Source: Escherichia phage 55. Taken from it: a DNA stretch of 64,000 nt. The stretch lies in sequence record OQ599310; one strand, written 5' to 3'. Below are positions 8,899 to 56,942 of the stretch, piece after piece. The notes under the pieces were generated by a model. That model was not told the DNA's origin. It saw nothing but the letters and a program-made list of their open reading frames with translations, and searched no databases. The first letter of the stretch is position 1. Every line of letters starts with the position of its first letter. The translations under genes and the position numbers were made by a program.

Positions 8899-9894
8899 AT
8901 GAGCATTACATCTGATGCGGTAAAACATGAAATTAACGGTTTATGTGCTTCACAGATTAAAGTGTGGTTTAAAGACCATAACGATCGCAGAGCACTTAAT
9001 TATGAGCAAATTGCTATCCAAGTTCATCAATTACTGACTAGTAAATTTGATTTTCATATGCCGTCTGAAATCTATACTAATCTGCCGCGAGCACTTATTA
9101 AAGCGTGTAAAGGTTATGGAAAATCAATGGCTGATGGAATCTTCAGCGCGCTGAATAAACTTAACGTTCTGTCGATGATTAACTCTAACAACATCCTGCG
9201 TAATCTAGGACGTACTGATTTGTTCGGTCGTGAACAGTGTAAAATGCCTTTGAAATGGATTGTTGCTCATCTTAACGAGAACCAAACACGTTTTATGGCC
9301 GTAACAGCACGTTTACAAATGGGCCTAGATCGTCAGATGAACTTTAAAACTCATCCACGTTATTCAGGTTCAACAGACTTTTATAAATGTGAGCTTCAAA
9401 AGGTTGGTGGTAAAACTGTCTTAGTAGTTCGTGTAACGTTTGAAGGACGACGTCAAGGATATTTTGACATAATCGGCTCTGGACTTAAACATTGTGGATT
9501 TATCGACGAAGTTGATATCAAGCGAGACGGCGTTGGATACCGTATTGGGTATGTTTGTACTCTTAAAGAAGAGATTTCAGGACCAGTACCAGGACTAAAA
9601 GACGTTAGATATAAAGACGAGCTCGTTGAAGAAATAAAAGAAGTTGAATATGATATCAACCAAGAAGATGCTCTTAAAGACCTTATTGATGAACTGAACC
9701 AAGACGTTATTCCTGTTCAGAAATTTGAATCAAAACATGCTGAGCAAATCAAATACTTTGAAGCTTTGATTAACGAACTTAATGTAACTATTCAACAGAC
9801 TGACGATGAAATCTCACGATTAGCAGGCTTAAATGGTAAAAATAAAACAGAACGAGCTAATCTTATTCAAGTAGTAAAACTTCTTAAGGAATGA
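8899..9894 (+). CDS. hypothetical protein (331 aa) with C-terminal coiled-coil-like tail
   Basis: long ORF, GAGGAAA RBS; heptad-like C-terminus. Confidence 0.6.
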   Translation: MSITSDAVKHEINGLCASQIKVWFKDHNDRRALNYEQIAIQVHQLLTSKFDFHMPSEIYTNLPRALIKACKGYGKSMADGIFSALNKLNVLSMINSNNILRNLGRTDLFGREQCKMPLKWIVAHLNENQTRFMAVTARLQMGLDRQMNFKTHPRYSGSTDFYKCELQKVGGKTVLVVRVTFEGRRQGYFDIIGSGLKHCGFIDEVDIKRDGVGYRIGYVCTLKEEISGPVPGLKDVRYKDELVEEIKEVEYDINQEDALKDLIDELNQDVIPVQKFESKHAEQIKYFEALINELNVTIQQTDDEISRLAGLNGKNKTERANLIQVVKLLKE

Positions 9895-9923
9895 TGTACA
9901 ACCAAGGATGGTTGGAGTATAAT
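9895..9923 (+). promoter_or_regulatory. early promoter, copy 1 of conserved ~30-bp promoter repeat
   Basis: TGTACA-ACCAAGGATGGTTGGAG-TATAAT. Confidence 0.55.
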
Positions 9924-9949: not shown

Positions 9950-10909
9950 ATGGCTTTTATTACACGTAGAGAACTTATCAAAGAATTTACCTCGAACGCA
10001 TATACTCCAGGACCTAATCCTATCCGTATGCCTGTAAAGACTCCTGAAGAGATTGAGGAAATCTGTTCATATTATGGGATTAATTCTCGTATGTTTACTC
10101 AATTTGAATGCGTTACTAACACACCCGTTAAAGAGTTCATTAAAAATGGTGAGTTCAGCCGTTTATTAGCCAAACAGAAACTTCGTAATTTTTGTATTGG
10201 TGGTGAAGGACAATATTTCGCTAAGCAGTTCCGGAATAACCTTAACAATCTGATGGCCATTGCTTCTCGTATTCGTCCTCAAGCAATTAACATGAAACAT
10301 TTGAAATATACTTACGATAAGTTAGAAATCATGGTTATCAGTGAGAACGAGTTCACTCTTACATATAATCCTAAGAATGATAACGTTGCTCGTGTATTCC
10401 ACCAAGCACTGGAAGTTTTAGGCGATAATATCCACCAGATTAAAGCGATTTATTCTCGTGAGCTTAATATTATTGACCCTATCAAGAATAAGGGCAATAT
10501 CGCTATCCAGGCTCGTGTATCTATTGGTAAAAAGGTTCCTGCGCCATGGTGGCACAAAGACTCTGAATACTATCAAAATCTTAAAAAGGAAAATGCATTG
10601 TTTGAAGCATCGCTTACTGGGACCCCAATTGGCAATGCTGAAGTTCTAGGTGCATATTCTACTTCGAGTAAATCAATGTTTAAAGGTTTGCCAAATGTGT
10701 GCAAACTGTCTGCAGTAAAACTAAATGTTTCTAATGACCTTCTTCCGGCCGAAGATTACCATTACAATCAAATCAAGGCCACTATGGACCAACTGTCTGT
10801 TGAACTTGACAAAGCACAAGCTAAGCTTCGTGATGCTCAACAAGTAGTTACCAATCTCCAGTTGCAGTACTCTAAACTTTTTAACGCAATGAATGCATTA
10901 AAATCATAA
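9950..10909 (+). CDS. hypothetical protein (319 aa) with C-terminal coiled-coil-like tail
   Basis: long ORF downstream of promoter repeat; GAGGAA RBS. Confidence 0.6.
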   Translation: MAFITRRELIKEFTSNAYTPGPNPIRMPVKTPEEIEEICSYYGINSRMFTQFECVTNTPVKEFIKNGEFSRLLAKQKLRNFCIGGEGQYFAKQFRNNLNNLMAIASRIRPQAINMKHLKYTYDKLEIMVISENEFTLTYNPKNDNVARVFHQALEVLGDNIHQIKAIYSRELNIIDPIKNKGNIAIQARVSIGKKVPAPWWHKDSEYYQNLKKENALFEASLTGTPIGNAEVLGAYSTSSKSMFKGLPNVCKLSAVKLNVSNDLLPAEDYHYNQIKATMDQLSVELDKAQAKLRDAQQVVTNLQLQYSKLFNAMNALKS

Positions 10910-10913
10910 ATCA

Positions 10914-10943
10914 GTTTACAACCAAGGATGGTTGGAGTATAAT
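10914..10943 (+). promoter_or_regulatory. early promoter, copy 2 of conserved promoter repeat
   Basis: GTTTAC-AACCAAGGATGGTTGGAG-TATAAT. Confidence 0.55.
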
Positions 10944-10971: not shown

Positions 10972-11916
10972 ATGACACGTTCACATTACATTGATTATTT
11001 TGCAGGTCTTATCGCTAATGTTCATGCCCAACGTGCTTCTGGTTCATTAGGATTTGATGTTCCACACCGAGATGTAGTAAGTGGTATTCTTCGCGATTTT
11101 GGTACATATACCGGCCAAGAAAATCATATCTGTAAAGATACTCAAAATGCGTATTCTCATTCATTAGGGACACTGCTTCAATGGTTCAAACGTTCTCGTT
11201 TATTATCTTCTACTGTGGCTCGCGATAACATTAAAAACTTTATGAAACCGAGCTTTATTAAATCTGTGACATCTAAAACCGATTTGGTTGAATTTACCAT
11301 TATTAACGATGTTAAAAAGACTCATTTAGCTGATTGGTTATCTACAATTCCTGAAACTAAATTTGCTGATAAATTTGCTTGTGAATTCAATAACCAAGTG
11401 AATATGCTTTTTAAACATTCACGTAAATTATTCACAGGCGGCGATGGTCGTACAAATAAAGTTCATGTTAAAGATTGGGTTACTGCAGTATTCAAACCAA
11501 CTGGTAATGGTAACGCATCGTTATCAATTGATATCCAGGTTCCTTATTATTACTCACGTAATCTCGGTACAATGAAAGCCGAAGAAATTAATAAGCGCAA
11601 CAAAACCATTCGTTCTCTGTCTTATAAACTTCGCATGATGTTACAGACTATGGATGTTGTTGAAATGTTCGACGAAACCGAAGATAACGGTTCAATGTTA
11701 TTCAGTTCTCGAATTAAAATTAAACTGAAGAACCCTAATGTGTTTAAGTCTATTAAAGAACCTAAAGCAGAAAAGGTTGATATCATGGCTGAAGAACGTG
11801 AGTACCTCAAATCTCGTCTGAAAGAAGTCGAAGCCCAGATTGCAGAACAAACTAAATCGTTAAAAGCTCTGAATGCGAAAGCGGACGGTTTACGAAATGC
11901 CATTGAGGTTTTATAA
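10972..11916 (+). CDS. hypothetical protein (314 aa) with C-terminal coiled-coil-like tail
   Basis: long ORF; GAGAGGAAAA RBS. Confidence 0.6.
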   Translation: MTRSHYIDYFAGLIANVHAQRASGSLGFDVPHRDVVSGILRDFGTYTGQENHICKDTQNAYSHSLGTLLQWFKRSRLLSSTVARDNIKNFMKPSFIKSVTSKTDLVEFTIINDVKKTHLADWLSTIPETKFADKFACEFNNQVNMLFKHSRKLFTGGDGRTNKVHVKDWVTAVFKPTGNGNASLSIDIQVPYYYSRNLGTMKAEEINKRNKTIRSLSYKLRMMLQTMDVVEMFDETEDNGSMLFSSRIKIKLKNPNVFKSIKEPKAEKVDIMAEEREYLKSRLKEVEAQIAEQTKSLKALNAKADGLRNAIEVL

Positions 11917-52866: not shown

Positions 52867-53544
52867 ATGAGCACTGATGTTATTATAGATTTTGAAACAT
52901 TCGGCAATACATCAAAAGCGGCTGTTATTGACCTTGCGGTTATTGCATATAATTCGGACCCTGAAGTTGTTGAAACATTTGAAGAACTTGTTCAACGAGG
53001 TAAGCGAATTAAATTTAATTTAGCTTCTCAAAAAGGGAAGCGAGTTTTCGCTAAATCCACTATGAAATGGTGGAAAGAACAATCAGCAGAAGCACGTAAA
53101 AACCTGGCTCCGTCTGAAGACGATGTCACTACGCTTGAAGGCATTAAAATCTTTTTAGACTATTGCCGAGCTAATAAAGTTGACCAATGGAAATCACAGA
53201 TGTGGTGCCGTGGTATGAGCTTTGACTTCCCGATCTTGGTCGATTTGATTCGTGACCTCTATCGTGATGAAGGTGTTCTTGAACCAGATATTGATACTGA
53301 TAAATTAGAACCTGTTAAATTCTGGGCTCAACGTGATATTCGTACGGCAATCGAAGCTTACTCGTTGACACGAGGATTAAGTATGTGTCCATTACCGATG
53401 GGTACGCTAAAAGGATTCGTTGCCCATGATAGTATTCATGATTGTGCTAAAGATATTTTGATGTTAAAATATGCTCAGCGTTATGCGCTTGGCCTTGAAG
53501 ATGTCCCTGAGAATCCTGACCCGTTAAGTGTAAAACAGCGATAA
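52867..53544 (+). CDS. dexA: exonuclease A (DEDD family)
   Basis: IIDFETFG exo I motif; HDSIHD motif; matches T4 DexA as recalled. Confidence 0.85.
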   Translation: MSTDVIIDFETFGNTSKAAVIDLAVIAYNSDPEVVETFEELVQRGKRIKFNLASQKGKRVFAKSTMKWWKEQSAEARKNLAPSEDDVTTLEGIKIFLDYCRANKVDQWKSQMWCRGMSFDFPILVDLIRDLYRDEGVLEPDIDTDKLEPVKFWAQRDIRTAIEAYSLTRGLSMCPLPMGTLKGFVAHDSIHDCAKDILMLKYAQRYALGLEDVPENPDPLSVKQR

Positions 53545-53549
53545 AACCA

Positions 53550-53579
53550 GTTTACAACCAAGGATGGTTGGAGTATAAT
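53550..53579 (+). promoter_or_regulatory. early promoter, copy 3 of conserved promoter repeat
   Basis: GTTTAC-AACCAAGGATGGTTGGAG-TATAAT. Confidence 0.55.
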
Positions 53580-53609: not shown

Positions 53610-54104
53610 ATGAATATCAATACTACGGCTACTTACATCCTGAAAGATGAAAAACAAATCAACTGGTATGGTGCTTCAGTGCGAGCTTATGAAAAGTTTT
53701 GTGAAATTTTAGGTGCCACTCAAGGTAATAGTTTCACTATTGTTAACTTCATCAAACAAGTTGAAGGCCCTTGGTTATTCTTAGAAATTAAAAATTCATA
53801 TGGTACAATTTCTACTACCGCCCTTCCAAGCACCGACTTTGAACTGCTGATTGAAGAAGTAGAACCCGTTAAAGATATCTGTATTGATATGGATATCGCT
53901 TGTATGTACGGTACTCTTATTAAGCCTATTGAGCCTACTGATTTGCTGTGTAAATATGTTTCAATTCGACGCCCATTCGCTGGTCCAGTAAATGGATGGG
54001 TAACTGATCAGTGGATTGAAGACGGTGTTGAACTTCTGAACGTTGTTCATGCCGGTGATTTTAGTGTGGTTCCACGTAGTGCAGTAGTTAATATTCTAAA
54101 TTAA
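53610..54104 (+). CDS. paralog 1 of a three-gene family (conserved C-terminal GW[IV][ST]DQW[IV]EDG...N[IV]V...GDF.VV)
   Basis: ATG 53610 (track start 53568 is a TTG inside the promoter repeat). Confidence 0.55.
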   Translation: MNINTTATYILKDEKQINWYGASVRAYEKFCEILGATQGNSFTIVNFIKQVEGPWLFLEIKNSYGTISTTALPSTDFELLIEEVEPVKDICIDMDIACMYGTLIKPIEPTDLLCKYVSIRRPFAGPVNGWVTDQWIEDGVELLNVVHAGDFSVVPRSAVVNILN

Positions 54105-54107
54105 TGT

Positions 54108-54136
54108 TGTACATCCAAGGATGGATGGAGTATAGT
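54108..54136 (+). promoter_or_regulatory. early promoter, diverged copy 4 of conserved promoter repeat
   Basis: TGTACA-TCCAAGGATGGATGGAG-TATAGT. Confidence 0.5.
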
Positions 54137-54168
54137 GAATTCAATTTAAACAAAGAGAGAGAGAAATT

Positions 54169-54624
54169 ATGATTACTATTGGTGAAATTAAGCGTGTATC
54201 GTCTGCATCTCGTTCTAAAGCTGCAGGTCGTCTAGTTGAAGTGGTAGGACTTCGTACTAATGGTACTGGACGTGTTAAAGAAGTTAAAGTTCGAATCATT
54301 CCTAGTTCTGGAAAAACTGAAACTCAGTACGCTTACGTAAGTCCTAAATTCTTGGAAACTCATGTGAGCGCTCATTTTGCTTCTACTGAACCTAATGTAC
54401 AGTTCAAATGGGCCCTTTGCAAAGGCGTTGAATTCCGGACTGATAAAGAATTTGATTTCATCGACGAATATGGTTATCCAAACAAAACTGATATTATGTG
54501 CGGCTTCATCACTGACCAATGGGTTGAAGATGGTGAAAAGTTATACAATATCGTATTCTTAGGTGACTTCCGAGTTGTTAAAGAATCTGAAATCACTCGC
54601 TATGTGTCTCCTCGTAAAGCTTAA
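54169..54624 (+). CDS. paralog 2 of the three-gene family
   Basis: shares N-terminal SRSK(A/V)AG(R/K)LVEV and C-terminal GFITDQWVEDGEKLYNIVFLGDFRVV with paralog 3. Confidence 0.55.
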   Translation: MITIGEIKRVSSASRSKAAGRLVEVVGLRTNGTGRVKEVKVRIIPSSGKTETQYAYVSPKFLETHVSAHFASTEPNVQFKWALCKGVEFRTDKEFDFIDEYGYPNKTDIMCGFITDQWVEDGEKLYNIVFLGDFRVVKESEITRYVSPRKA

Positions 54625-54633
54625 GGAATTATT

Positions 54634-55053
54634 ATGAATATTGTAAATCTCTCTACAGGTGATTACGTATATGTATCTGTTGCTTCTCGCTCTAAAGTTG
54701 CCGGGAAGTTGGTTGAAGTTCTTTCTGTGAGTGATCCGGTTTTTGGTCGTAACCAAGTTAAAGTTCGTGATGCTAATGGTAATATTGGCTACGTCTCAAG
54801 CCAGTTCATTGAGCCAGAAGAAAAAGCGTTCAAATGGGGACTATGCAGATCAGTTTCTGTTGAAAAAGACCATGAATTCACTATTGCCGCGGCAACTGAT
54901 GGAACGCCATGGAAAACTAAGCAAATCGCCGGATTTATTAGCGACCGTTGGGTAGAAGATGGTGTTAAGCTTTATAACATCGTTTTCGCTGGTCAGTTCA
55001 TGGTAGTTCCTGAATTCCAAATTAAAAAATATAGCCCAGCTGCTTTCGCATAA
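54634..55053 (+). CDS. paralog 3 of the three-gene family
   Basis: GFISDRWVEDGVKLYNIVFAGQFMVV. Confidence 0.55.
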   Translation: MNIVNLSTGDYVYVSVASRSKVAGKLVEVLSVSDPVFGRNQVKVRDANGNIGYVSSQFIEPEEKAFKWGLCRSVSVEKDHEFTIAAATDGTPWKTKQIAGFISDRWVEDGVKLYNIVFAGQFMVVPEFQIKKYSPAAFA

Positions 55054-55057
55054 AGTT

Positions 55058-55106
55058 GTTTACTTCTCCTCTGGTTTTGATATTATAACCATATCAACCA
55101 GAGGAG
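55058..55106 (+). promoter_or_regulatory. early promoter with 11-bp inverted repeat whose downstream arm contains the RBS
   Basis: GTTTAC 55058..55063, TATTAT 55081..55086; CTCCTCTGGTT 55066..55076 / AACCAGAGGAG 55096..55106. Confidence 0.55.
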
Positions 55107-55112
55107 AATAAT

Positions 55113-55637
55113 ATGTTAGTTTACCGCGTAGAACGTAGTTTTTGTACTCAACGTGAATCATTACCAGGAATTGTTATCGAAGACGGTAAAGCCGTCAGAA
55201 TTTGGGAAACCTCTTGGAATAAAGAACCTCGCTCACCTTACGGTTGGTCTGGCACTGACAACTCTGAAGAAACATGGGAGTTCCTTGATAAGCATGGAAT
55301 ACTCTCAGGTAACTTCTACCATCACGGCGACAACTATAATGTCCCTAATCGTCCTACTGTAAATGAGGACAAACTTCTTGAACAAAATATCTTAAGATAC
55401 TACAGAATTGAGCACACATTTGAATTGAACGAAGATTGGGCTCAAGGGTTCTATTTTGGATTTGAAAGTGTTGACGCGGTTTATGCATGGTTTGATGACC
55501 AGGTGGATGTTGAACTCTTGAAAGCTAAAGGATACTACATCGCGGTCTATGAAGCACCTGATTTCATCCTCGGAAGTTGTCAATTAATGTTTAGACGTTC
55601 ATTGGCAGAACAAGTTGATTTTATTTTGCTAAAATGA
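55113..55637 (+). CDS. hypothetical protein (174 aa)
   Basis: GAGGAG RBS before ATG 55113. Confidence 0.55.
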   Translation: MLVYRVERSFCTQRESLPGIVIEDGKAVRIWETSWNKEPRSPYGWSGTDNSEETWEFLDKHGILSGNFYHHGDNYNVPNRPTVNEDKLLEQNILRYYRIEHTFELNEDWAQGFYFGFESVDAVYAWFDDQVDVELLKAKGYYIAVYEAPDFILGSCQLMFRRSLAEQVDFILLK

Positions 55638-55694: not shown

Positions 55695-55922
55695 ATGAAA
55701 CGTCAAATCATTAAAAACGTAACTACTGATTCAAACATCGATGAGTTTGAAGATGTTCTGTTTAATCCTGATTTAGTTGTTGTACAGAAAAACTGGACCG
55801 AATTTTTATGCTACACTGAAGTGGTTTACGTTTACGAAAAACTCGGCGATGAAATGCCTATCTACGGTATCTTCCGTGAAATCACTGAAAACGGTACAAC
55901 TTATTGGAAGGAAACTTACTAA
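55695..55922 (+). CDS. hypothetical small protein (75 aa)
   Basis: AAGAGGAG RBS before ATG 55695. Confidence 0.45.
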
Positions 55923-56332
55923 TGGCTAATAAATTCCGCATTAACTCATGGTACCAATTTAAAGATAAACGTGCCCAAGAAGAGTTTATTAAAGACCATA
56001 CTGATAATGGGATTTATGCACGACGTCTTGGCCTGGAACCATTTAAAGTATTAGATGTTGACCATCTTGGTCGTCCTACTAAAATTGTGACATCTACTGG
56101 CATGGTTGGATACGCAACAGGCGGTGATATCCTTGATGAAAACTTTATCTGGCTCTCCACGAATGAAGCAGAGTTCTTTGACGAAGTTGGAAATCCATAT
56201 CAAGAGTCTGAAGAGCAAGATTCTAGTGAACTTGGTGAATTGTCTGAATTTCCGGTGATGTCGATTACTATCGAAAATAACGACCAGGCATGGTCTTTGT
56301 ATCAAATGTTGAAAGCACATTTTAAGGAATAA
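55922..56332 (+). CDS. hypothetical acidic protein (136 aa)
   Basis: TAATG-coupled start. Confidence 0.5.
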
Positions 56333-56519: not shown

Positions 56520-56942
56520 ATGGCTTTTAAAGGTTTTGAAGTTGGTAAGAAATATCGTATTATCAAAGGTCAAGAAGATAATTTCTTGAGAATTCTTAAT
56601 ACAACTGGTAAACGTCTTAACACTACTCTGCATACAGTTTTATTATCAAGAGATTTTATTGTAGAAGAGATGATTGGTTACGGTGTTTCAATGATTGCCG
56701 CTGAAACCGATGGACCTGGACGTACAATCATTAGTATGCAAGGTGATATTCTGCTTTATGGTGCAGAATTTAAATTCTTTGAAGAAGTTAAGGAACCAGA
56801 TACAGCTGTCGATTTCAAAAAAGGCTCTATAGAATTTGTTGATGGTTCGGTTATCGTATCAGGCGATGTGGTCATTACAGTTAAAAGTGAACAAGGGCGT
56901 TTGGCTGCAATTGATGCACTTCAGAAAATTAAATTTAAATAA
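56520..56942 (+). CDS. hypothetical protein (140 aa)
   Basis: ATG right after upstream stop; terminator follows. Confidence 0.55.
   Translation: MAFKGFEVGKKYRIIKGQEDNFLRILNTTGKRLNTTLHTVLLSRDFIVEEMIGYGVSMIAAETDGPGRTIISMQGDILLYGAEFKFFEEVKEPDTAVDFKKGSIEFVDGSVIVSGDVVITVKSEQGRLAAIDALQKIKFK

Follow-up and report, generated by a model that had tools for sequence, protein, structure and literature searches.

Three consecutive genes downstream of dexA in Escherichia phage 55 as probable Mosigvirus versions of motB.1, motB and a second, diverged motB

Directly downstream of dexA in the genome of Escherichia phage 55 (sequence record OQ599310), the 64,000-nucleotide (nt) stretch of DNA analysed here (hereafter the window) carries three consecutive open reading frames (ORFs) of 164, 151 and 139 aa, which we call ORF-A, ORF-B and ORF-C. 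A first-pass annotation, made from the sequence alone, had described them as a tandem triplet of paralogous small genes, and all three are indeed intact, adjacent and on the + strand. We identify the trio, with a probability of roughly 88%, as T-even early genes in their Mosigvirus (RB69-like) form, namely motB.1, motB and a second, diverged motB. This arrangement had already been described in the RB69 GenBank record and in the 2021 analysis of Patterson-West, and because that analysis, together with Kim et al. 2025 and the RB69 record, made the key points, the finding is a known one. It is an ordinary gene family arrangement, and the presence of two motB genes and one motB.1 adds nothing new as such. 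The three genes are as follows.

53610-54104, + strand: ORF-A, 164 aa, intact motB.1 orthologue (phrog_2333; Pfam motB, C-terminal part)
54169-54624, + strand: ORF-B, 151 aa, motB orthologue (Pfam PF17613, full length)
54634-55053, + strand: ORF-C, 139 aa, diverged second motB paralogue (Pfam motB; phrog_1671)

Membership of the trio in the MotB family

The first-pass annotation had pointed to a block shared by the C-terminal ends of all three proteins and to an SRSK(A/V)AG(R/K)LVEV block shared by the N-terminal parts of the second and third. When six-frame translations of the whole window were searched, the C-terminal block matched exactly three times, once at the end of each ORF, and the SRSK block exactly twice, in ORF-B and ORF-C, at the following positions.

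53994-54074, + strand: C-terminal block in ORF-A (GWVTDQWIEDGVELLNVVHAGDFSVVP)
54502-54582, + strand: C-terminal block in ORF-B (GFITDQWVEDGEKLYNIVFLGDFRVVK)
54931-55011, + strand: C-terminal block in ORF-C (GFISDRWVEDGVKLYNIVFAGQFMVVP)
54208-54243, + strand: N-terminal block in ORF-B (SRSKAAGRLVEV)
54685-54720, + strand: N-terminal block in ORF-C (SRSKVAGKLVEV)

Pairwise alignment with BLASTP, a check that the first-pass annotation had proposed, gave significant similarity for every pair: E=1e-10 for ORF-A and ORF-B (47% identity over 36 aa), E=2e-10 for ORF-A and ORF-C (55% over 29 aa) and E=4e-31 for ORF-B and ORF-C (43% over 145 aa). All three proteins also score above the curated gathering score (25 bits) of the Pfam family PF17613, "motB": ORF-B with 133.1 bits (1.1e-38) over the full length, profile positions 2-157, ORF-C with 75.6 bits (5.3e-21), and ORF-A with 35.1 bits (1.5e-8) over profile positions 78-153 only, i.e., the C-terminal part. 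In PHROGs, ORF-B and ORF-C belong to phrog_1671 (MotB-like; 6.6e-51 for residues 5-139 of ORF-C) and ORF-A to phrog_2333 (E=1.7e-82, residues 1-164, its full length), and the secondary matches of each ORF to the other of these two families run through the C-terminus. With BLASTP, the Pfam and PHROGs matches and the exact motif counts all in agreement, the similarity is real and chance resemblance is ruled out.

The homology reaches further towards the N-terminus than the block first noticed, forming a unit of 56-73 aa that begins at LC(K/R)xV and in which ORF-B and ORF-C carry an insertion of 14-15 residues. Among architectures that otherwise have nothing in common, conservation is highest in this C-terminal domain, with its invariant PTDLL...GWV.DQW.E.G.ELLNVVH. 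When the C-terminal domains of the trio were combined into one profile, it retrieved 29 clusters (at 50% identity) from 1.84 billion proteins; three of the matches were repeat proteins that look spurious, leaving about 26. The clusters are small phage proteins, nearly all with a KOW-type head, and the search of these 1.84 billion representatives yielded no fusion of the domain to an informative domain. Being confined to a few clusters of small phage proteins, the C-terminal domain is narrowly phage-restricted. Family profiles of MotB and MotB.1 retrieved no solved relative from the PDB, the best matches having E = 0.54 and 0.74.

Among the closest described counterparts is the RB69 locus, whose record (AY303349) lists motB.1, RB69ORF012c (29 aa), motB, RB69ORF010c ("similar to motB") and motB.2, and which Patterson-West 2021 counted as two motB, one motB.1 and one 29-aa peptide (PMC7827196). 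The RB69 trio has the same order and is 94-98% identical to that of the window, with ORF-B 94% identical to RB69 MotB and ORF-C 94% identical to RB69ORF010c. T4, with the gene order dexA-motB.2-motB.1-motB-cef, is more distant. ORF-B and ORF-C resemble T4 MotB in fitting the whole family model, with a KOW-like N-terminal part and a C-terminal barrel, in lying in the dexA-cef neighbourhood and, for ORF-B, in an early promoter placed as in T4 motB. They differ from it in that identity falls to 49% for ORF-B and 36% for ORF-C, in that T4 has a single motB, and in that ORF-C is shorter and nearly uncharged.

The genomic context agrees with this assignment, the trio lying between dexA and cef/goF, in the early region of Tevenvirinae. 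Its immediate neighbours are listed below; the 174-aa gene is followed, in order, by cef, goF, 39.2, a GoF-like 140-aa gene and the gene for the topoisomerase large subunit. The window is Mosigvirus DNA, 98.4% identical to that of Escherichia phage vB_EcoM_SA79RD, a member of that genus, and for a 3.6-kb query a coverage of at least 80% was reached in 148 GenBank phage records.

51544-52857, + strand: dda
52867-53544, + strand: dexA, directly preceding the trio
55113-55637, + strand: 174-aa gene, T4 motB.2 homologue, next after the trio

Domain architecture and the T4 and RB69 reference genes

Structure prediction had also been proposed as a check, and the AlphaFold2 models that we generated from family alignments for ORF-A and ORF-B show a five-stranded C-terminal domain with the same strand pattern in both. 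ORF-B consists of a basic KOW/SH3-like N-terminal barrel (residues 1-62), a linker and a five-stranded C-terminal barrel (79-151); in its model, with a predicted local distance difference test score (pLDDT) of 83.7, the strands of the N-terminal barrel fall within residues 7-57, the linker is poorly defined (62-85) and the C-terminal domain spans residues 86-145. The two-domain layout extends to ORF-C, by its full-length alignment with ORF-B and phrog_1671, with shorter loops. As such, both proteins combine a KOW/SH3-like N-terminal barrel bearing SRSK..AG+LVEV with the C-terminal barrel. Their charges are unlike one another: in ORF-B a strongly basic N-terminal domain (+8, isoelectric point (pI) 10.7) stands beside an acidic C-terminal one (-3), and ORF-C is close to neutral, with a charge of only +1 on its N-terminal domain.

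ORF-A is built on a different plan. A putative N-terminal LSm-like barrel (about residues 1-85) is followed by a disordered linker (86-108) and the MotB-type C-terminal barrel (109-164); in the corresponding model (pLDDT 79.3), strands and helices make up the N-terminal domain (8-83), residues 86-106 are disordered and the five-stranded C-terminal domain spans residues 116-163. The protein is acidic throughout (pI 4.5, net charge -9). Its N-terminal domain is unrelated to that of ORF-B and ORF-C and shows none of the KOW/SH3-like and SRSK layout, and ORF-A is therefore a MotB-family member at the level of the C-terminal domain only. Patterson-West 2021 had likewise noted that a C-terminal domain is conserved between MotB and MotB.1, whose N-terminal domains differ, and had proposed that one of the two genes may derive from the other by duplication (PMC7827196). 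The N-terminal domain of MotB.1 was placed in an LSm-like fold family together with GoF and Frd.2 by Kim et al. 2025, who found no phenotype on deletion of T4 motB.1 (PMC12152347); in the laboratory, T4 can dispense with the gene. A longer ORF-A, starting at a TTG at 53568 (178 aa), was considered and rejected, as the promoter -10 element lies downstream of that TTG and the orthologues are annotated with 164 aa.

Against an intact 143-aa T4-type MotB.1 (P0116), ORF-A shows 46% identity with 99% of its length aligned. It resembles T4 MotB.1 in adjoining motB on the upstream side and in joining a putative LSm-like N-terminal domain to a MotB-type C-terminal domain, and differs from it in an extra segment of about 22 aa bearing a conserved DMDIACMYGTLIKP motif, which lies in the disordered linker (residues 86-108, window 53865-53933) and may be a short linear interaction motif. 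This motif, of the general form D(M/T/I)D(I/V)A(C/S)MYGTL(I/V)KP, recurs in many family members (P0141, P0136, P0143, P0163, P0232-P0241), either at the N-terminus or in the linker between domains, and is missing from the T4-type MotB.1 proteins of 143-145 aa.

Comparison with ORF-A also bears on two reference records. In RB69, two 1-nt insertions split motB.1 into ORFs of 132 aa and 29 aa, unlike the intact 164-aa ORF-A, so that RB69ORF012c, which Patterson-West 2021 listed as a 29-aa "Category 3" peptide, corresponds to the displaced C-terminus of motB.1 (RB69 1947-2443 against window 53610-54104). The motB.1 gene of the T4 reference (119 aa) stops within the shared block (…DQWIGRWR, then a stop), and its +1 frame encodes the missing 28 residues, going on EDGVELLNVVHAGEYSVVPRSAVVAILN to a stop. 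At this place the T4 reference has an extra G (NC_000866 3722-3860, minus strand: GATTGGAAGATGG versus GATTGAAGA(C/T)GG; compare window 53994-54104), which occurs only in AF158101/NC_000866 and is absent from 13 other records (11 of T4, including T4T, plus RB55 and RB59). The intact 143-aa T4-type MotB.1 was found on 256 contigs. From these comparisons, the truncation of motB.1 in the T4 reference is likely a sequence error. The 13.8-kDa MotB.1 of Kim et al. 2025 (PMC12152347) has the size of the truncated annotation.

Two GoF-like genes of phrog_622 lie downstream of the trio, namely goF and the 140-aa gene (55922-56332 and 56520-56942), the latter at the position of the 65-aa T4 gene 39.1. 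The 140-aa gene product has a weak match to phrog_2333 through its N-terminal region (E=0.005), which fits the proposed GoF/MotB.1/Frd.2 superfamily.

Selection, copy number and rearrangement

The first-pass annotation had taken the trio as a sign of gene amplification, possibly under host-range or anti-defence selection. The paralogy on which this rested is real, and we accept duplication as the origin of the ORF-B/ORF-C pair; what is not supported is the expansion, the copies being old and diverged. A recent tandem amplification of the "genomic accordion" kind would find some encouragement in the arrangement itself, as the genes are tandem, in the same orientation and located in a plastic, non-essential early region; the poxvirus/T6-type accordion (PMC13096335) likewise has tandem, same-strand copies of an accessory gene. 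Copies in an accordion, however, hardly differ from one another and are gained or lost in a handful of passages (PMC13096335), whereas those of the trio are stably inherited, with no more than 43% identity between ORF-B and ORF-C. With either of these, ORF-A has just about 30-56 aa in common, the extent of its C-terminal domain (about 56 aa), and since its homology is limited to that domain, the sharing is at the domain level.

To compare copy number across related phages, as had been suggested, we relied on tblastn counts over GenBank phages, an IMG/VR scan with ORF-C having given only 3 loci, which is too few. ORF-C had 777 matching phage records, 207 of them at ≥80% identity and the other 570 at <60%; for ORF-B, 201 of 771 matched at ≥60% and the other 570 below 60%. 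Orthologues of the ORF-B and ORF-C types are thus well conserved, in about 200 records each. All Mosigvirus loci examined retain ORF-A, ORF-B and ORF-C, so copy number does not vary among these close relatives. It does differ between lineages, with one, two or three genes carrying the domain, a fact that would suit amplification. Gaprivervirus and Dhakavirus phages have one motB and a longer MotB.1. In Klebsiella phage F48 (Marfavirus), a single gene (2411-2791) joins a MotB-type N-terminal domain to a MotB.1-type C-terminal domain. A single gene combining a KOW head with a MotB.1-type C-terminal domain (DPTDLLC...GWVTDQWIEDGVELLNVVH) is also found in Klebsiella and Enterobacter T4-like phages (P0163, P0195, P0231). 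The layout of KOW plus C-terminal domain is, judging from these sequences, probably ancestral, as it is the commonest among distant family members.

The ORF-B/ORF-C pair is also present in the Tequatroviruses RB27, RB3, RB68, Sf23 and similar phages, in the order dexA-motB.2-motB.1-motB-motB', where the B-type gene is 86% and the C-type gene 89% identical to that of the window. Because RB27-type Tequatroviruses carry this pair while T4 has neither type, the distribution suggests that lineages have exchanged the B-C module. The motB.2 homologue follows the motB genes in Mosigvirus, lies between dexA and motB.1 in T4, JS10 and RB27, and is absent from phage F2 (dexA-A-B-C-cef); these differences in position indicate gene-order shuffling in the region.

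Recombination between two motB copies has left a trace in phage Kelasse, a further point that could be cited for amplification. Kelasse (2159-2611) has a single chimeric motB in place of the RB27 pair (1718-2620), in which codons 1-14 are of the B-type and the remainder of the C-type. What RB27 has from motB codon 15 up to the SRSK codons of motB' is missing in Kelasse, the flanks are identical, and the joint lies at TCTCGTTCTAAAG, the first codons of the C-type SRSK block in RB27. On this alignment we read Kelasse, the one change in copy number that we could map, as a deletion by recombination between tandem paralogues, a rare loss and not an expansion, and the fusion shows that crossing over can take place at the conserved N-terminal block. 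The junction occurs in one record among 50,697 phage records, which disposes of the fusion as a common allele. Taken together, the lineage pattern of copy number reflects module exchange and one deletion rather than accordion-like expansion.

Selection gives the same answer. From 6-9 related loci per gene, all with intact reading frames, the median pairwise ratio of nonsynonymous to synonymous substitution rates (dN/dS) was 0.11 for ORF-A, 0.24 for ORF-B and 0.15 for ORF-C, compared with 0.04 for dexA and 0.09 for motB.2 at the same loci. By these ratios, all three genes are under purifying selection. The suggested host-range or anti-defence selection is at odds with a dN/dS of 0.11-0.24, and nothing in the literature searched links the trio to receptor binding or a known defence. 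As a result, we regard recent tandem amplification under such selection as highly improbable.

Alternatively, ORF-C could be a superfluous motB that is degenerating into a pseudogene. It is shorter than ORF-B (139 aa), with neither the RIIPSSGKTETQ loop nor the full linker, it has lost the basic charge, and it has no promoter of its own. Its frame is nevertheless intact in 9 of 9 sequences, at the constraint given above, and across Mosigvirus and RB3/RB27-type Tequatrovirus the C-type copies show 87-100% conservation. The gene is preceded by a good ribosome-binding site (AAGGA), the many records at ≥80% identity speak for its retention, and it is the C-type body that was kept in Kelasse. Decay of ORF-C is, on this evidence, barely credible, and we retain the reading of ORF-C as a diverged second motB.

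Predicted early transcription and proposed role

The first-pass annotation had assigned each gene a promoter of its own, two of them copies of a conserved repeat. This applies to ORF-A and ORF-B, both of which are preceded by a predicted T4-type early promoter containing the repeat, a 20-nt core CCAAGGATGG(T/A)TGGAGTATA with 4 copies in the window versus 0 expected. The promoter of ORF-A is also annotated as a promoter in SA79RD. ORF-C starts 9 nt past the ORF-B stop, with its ribosome-binding site overlapping that stop, and no promoter-like site on the + strand was found for it between 54173 and 55059, the next promoter serving the following gene. The claim is therefore wrong for the third gene, for which co-transcription with ORF-B is the simplest and probable arrangement.

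53551-53579, + strand: predicted early promoter of ORF-A, TTTACA-17-TATAAT, near-consensus (11/12; consensus match and SA79RD annotation)
53558-53577, + strand: promoter repeat copy (20 nt) in the ORF-A promoter
54108-54136, + strand: predicted early promoter of ORF-B, TGTACA-17-TATAGT, weaker (9/12; consensus match)
54115-54134, + strand: promoter repeat copy (20 nt) in the ORF-B promoter
55059-55086, + strand: predicted early promoter of the motB.2 homologue, TTTACT-16-TATTAT, downstream boundary of the trio
55064-55108, + strand: strong hairpin (-25.5 kcal/mol, z = -4.97)

The hairpin following ORF-C encloses the -10 element of the promoter of the motB.2 homologue, and its 3' arm contains the GAGGAG ribosome-binding site of that gene in paired form. 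The hairpin would mask read-through transcripts, and transcripts started inside it would be translatable. In SA79RD a rho-independent terminator is annotated after ORF-C, an assignment we rejected. As the stem is followed by no T-run and holds both a promoter and a ribosome-binding site, we read the hairpin as regulatory and not as an intrinsic terminator.

The hexamers of the trio promoters fit the consensus TTTACW-N17-TAYWAT of T4-type promoter-stem-loop (PeSL) cassettes (PMC4122927). As in the cassettes described by Arbiol et al. 2010 and Comeau et al. 2014, repeated early promoters here flank small non-essential genes in a plastic region, the promoter downstream of the trio (55059-55086) is embedded in a stem-loop, and nearby gene content varies among related phages. 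Unlike in those cassettes, the promoters of ORF-A and ORF-B have no strong stem-loop, just a weak 4-bp inverted repeat, and the mapped Kelasse crossover lies inside a coding repeat. The other two copies of the promoter core, at 9902-9921 and 10922-10941, come with a conserved 5' leader and ribosome-binding site and precede two genes out of a consecutive set of three, each of about 320 aa (8899-9894, 9950-10909 and 10972-11916). These three belong to different PHROGs (2257, 2351 and 1435) and each ends in an apparently coiled-coil-like tail; the core and leader there resemble PeSL-type regulatory cassettes.

What these proteins do can be approached through T4 MotB, which binds DNA non-specifically (both host DNA and modified phage DNA), is toxic in E. 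coli, co-purifies with H-NS and StpA, alters the H-NS footprint and up-regulates H-NS-repressed host genes (PMC6070864, PMC7827196). T4 MotB also doubles the burst size. We propose that all three proteins of the trio would end in one small five-stranded beta-barrel, the MotB C-terminal domain, which in ORF-B and ORF-C would follow a common KOW/SH3-like N-terminal barrel and in ORF-A an LSm-like barrel shared with GoF and Frd.2. ORF-B and ORF-C would stem from an old duplication and have since been kept as separate genes by purifying selection, while ORF-A would be related to them by the joining of one C-terminal domain to a different N-terminal domain. Sigma-70-type promoters before ORF-A and ORF-B would drive early transcription, with ORF-C carried on the ORF-B transcript. 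By analogy with T4 MotB, ORF-B, and less certainly ORF-C, would bind DNA non-specifically and alter the seating of H-NS and StpA on it, and the action of ORF-B would modestly raise phage yield. ORF-C may be a sub-functionalised or modified version of MotB, and ORF-A would pair the shared C-terminal domain with a different head. Non-specific DNA binding more probably resides in the basic N-terminal barrel than in the C-terminal domain, given the charges of +8 and -3 on the N- and C-terminal domains of ORF-B, the near-neutrality of ORF-C and the acidity of ORF-A.

Several points weigh against this account. The functional data are all those of T4 MotB, to which ORF-B and ORF-C are only 49% and 36% identical, and Patterson-West 2021 considered either MotB domain a possible DNA binder (PMC7827196). 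ORF-C may not bind DNA as MotB does, because most of the positive charge of its N-terminal domain is lost. The promoters are predicted from consensus matches, and dN/dS values from 6-9 sequences per gene would miss positive selection at a few sites.

The C-terminal barrel may instead be a common docking or oligomerisation module and not the DNA-binding part, bringing the different heads (basic KOW, near-neutral KOW and acidic LSm-like) to one partner, e.g., H-NS/StpA filaments, or into mixed oligomers. Its standing as the best-conserved part of otherwise unrelated proteins would fit such a role, as would its neutral to acidic character (-2, -3 and +1 across the trio), which, like the overall acidity of ORF-A, is a poor fit to non-specific DNA binding. 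The co-purification of T4 MotB with H-NS and StpA, the behaviour of MotB.1, which runs as monomer and dimer, and the peptide-binding Tudor, PWWP and BAH barrels among the best structural matches would agree with it as well. We consider this docking role unlikely, though worth keeping in view. If it were true, the trio would be a combinatorial counter-silencing system and not three redundant DNA binders.

The MotB family is part of a poorly understood group of early proteins with which T-even phages handle the host nucleoid and H-NS. For the design of experiments on its members, it matters that the true MotB.1, unlike that of the T4 reference, has a complete MotB-type C-terminal domain, that the 29-aa peptide of RB69 is a frameshift fragment, and that charge contrasts strongly between the N-terminal and C-terminal domains.

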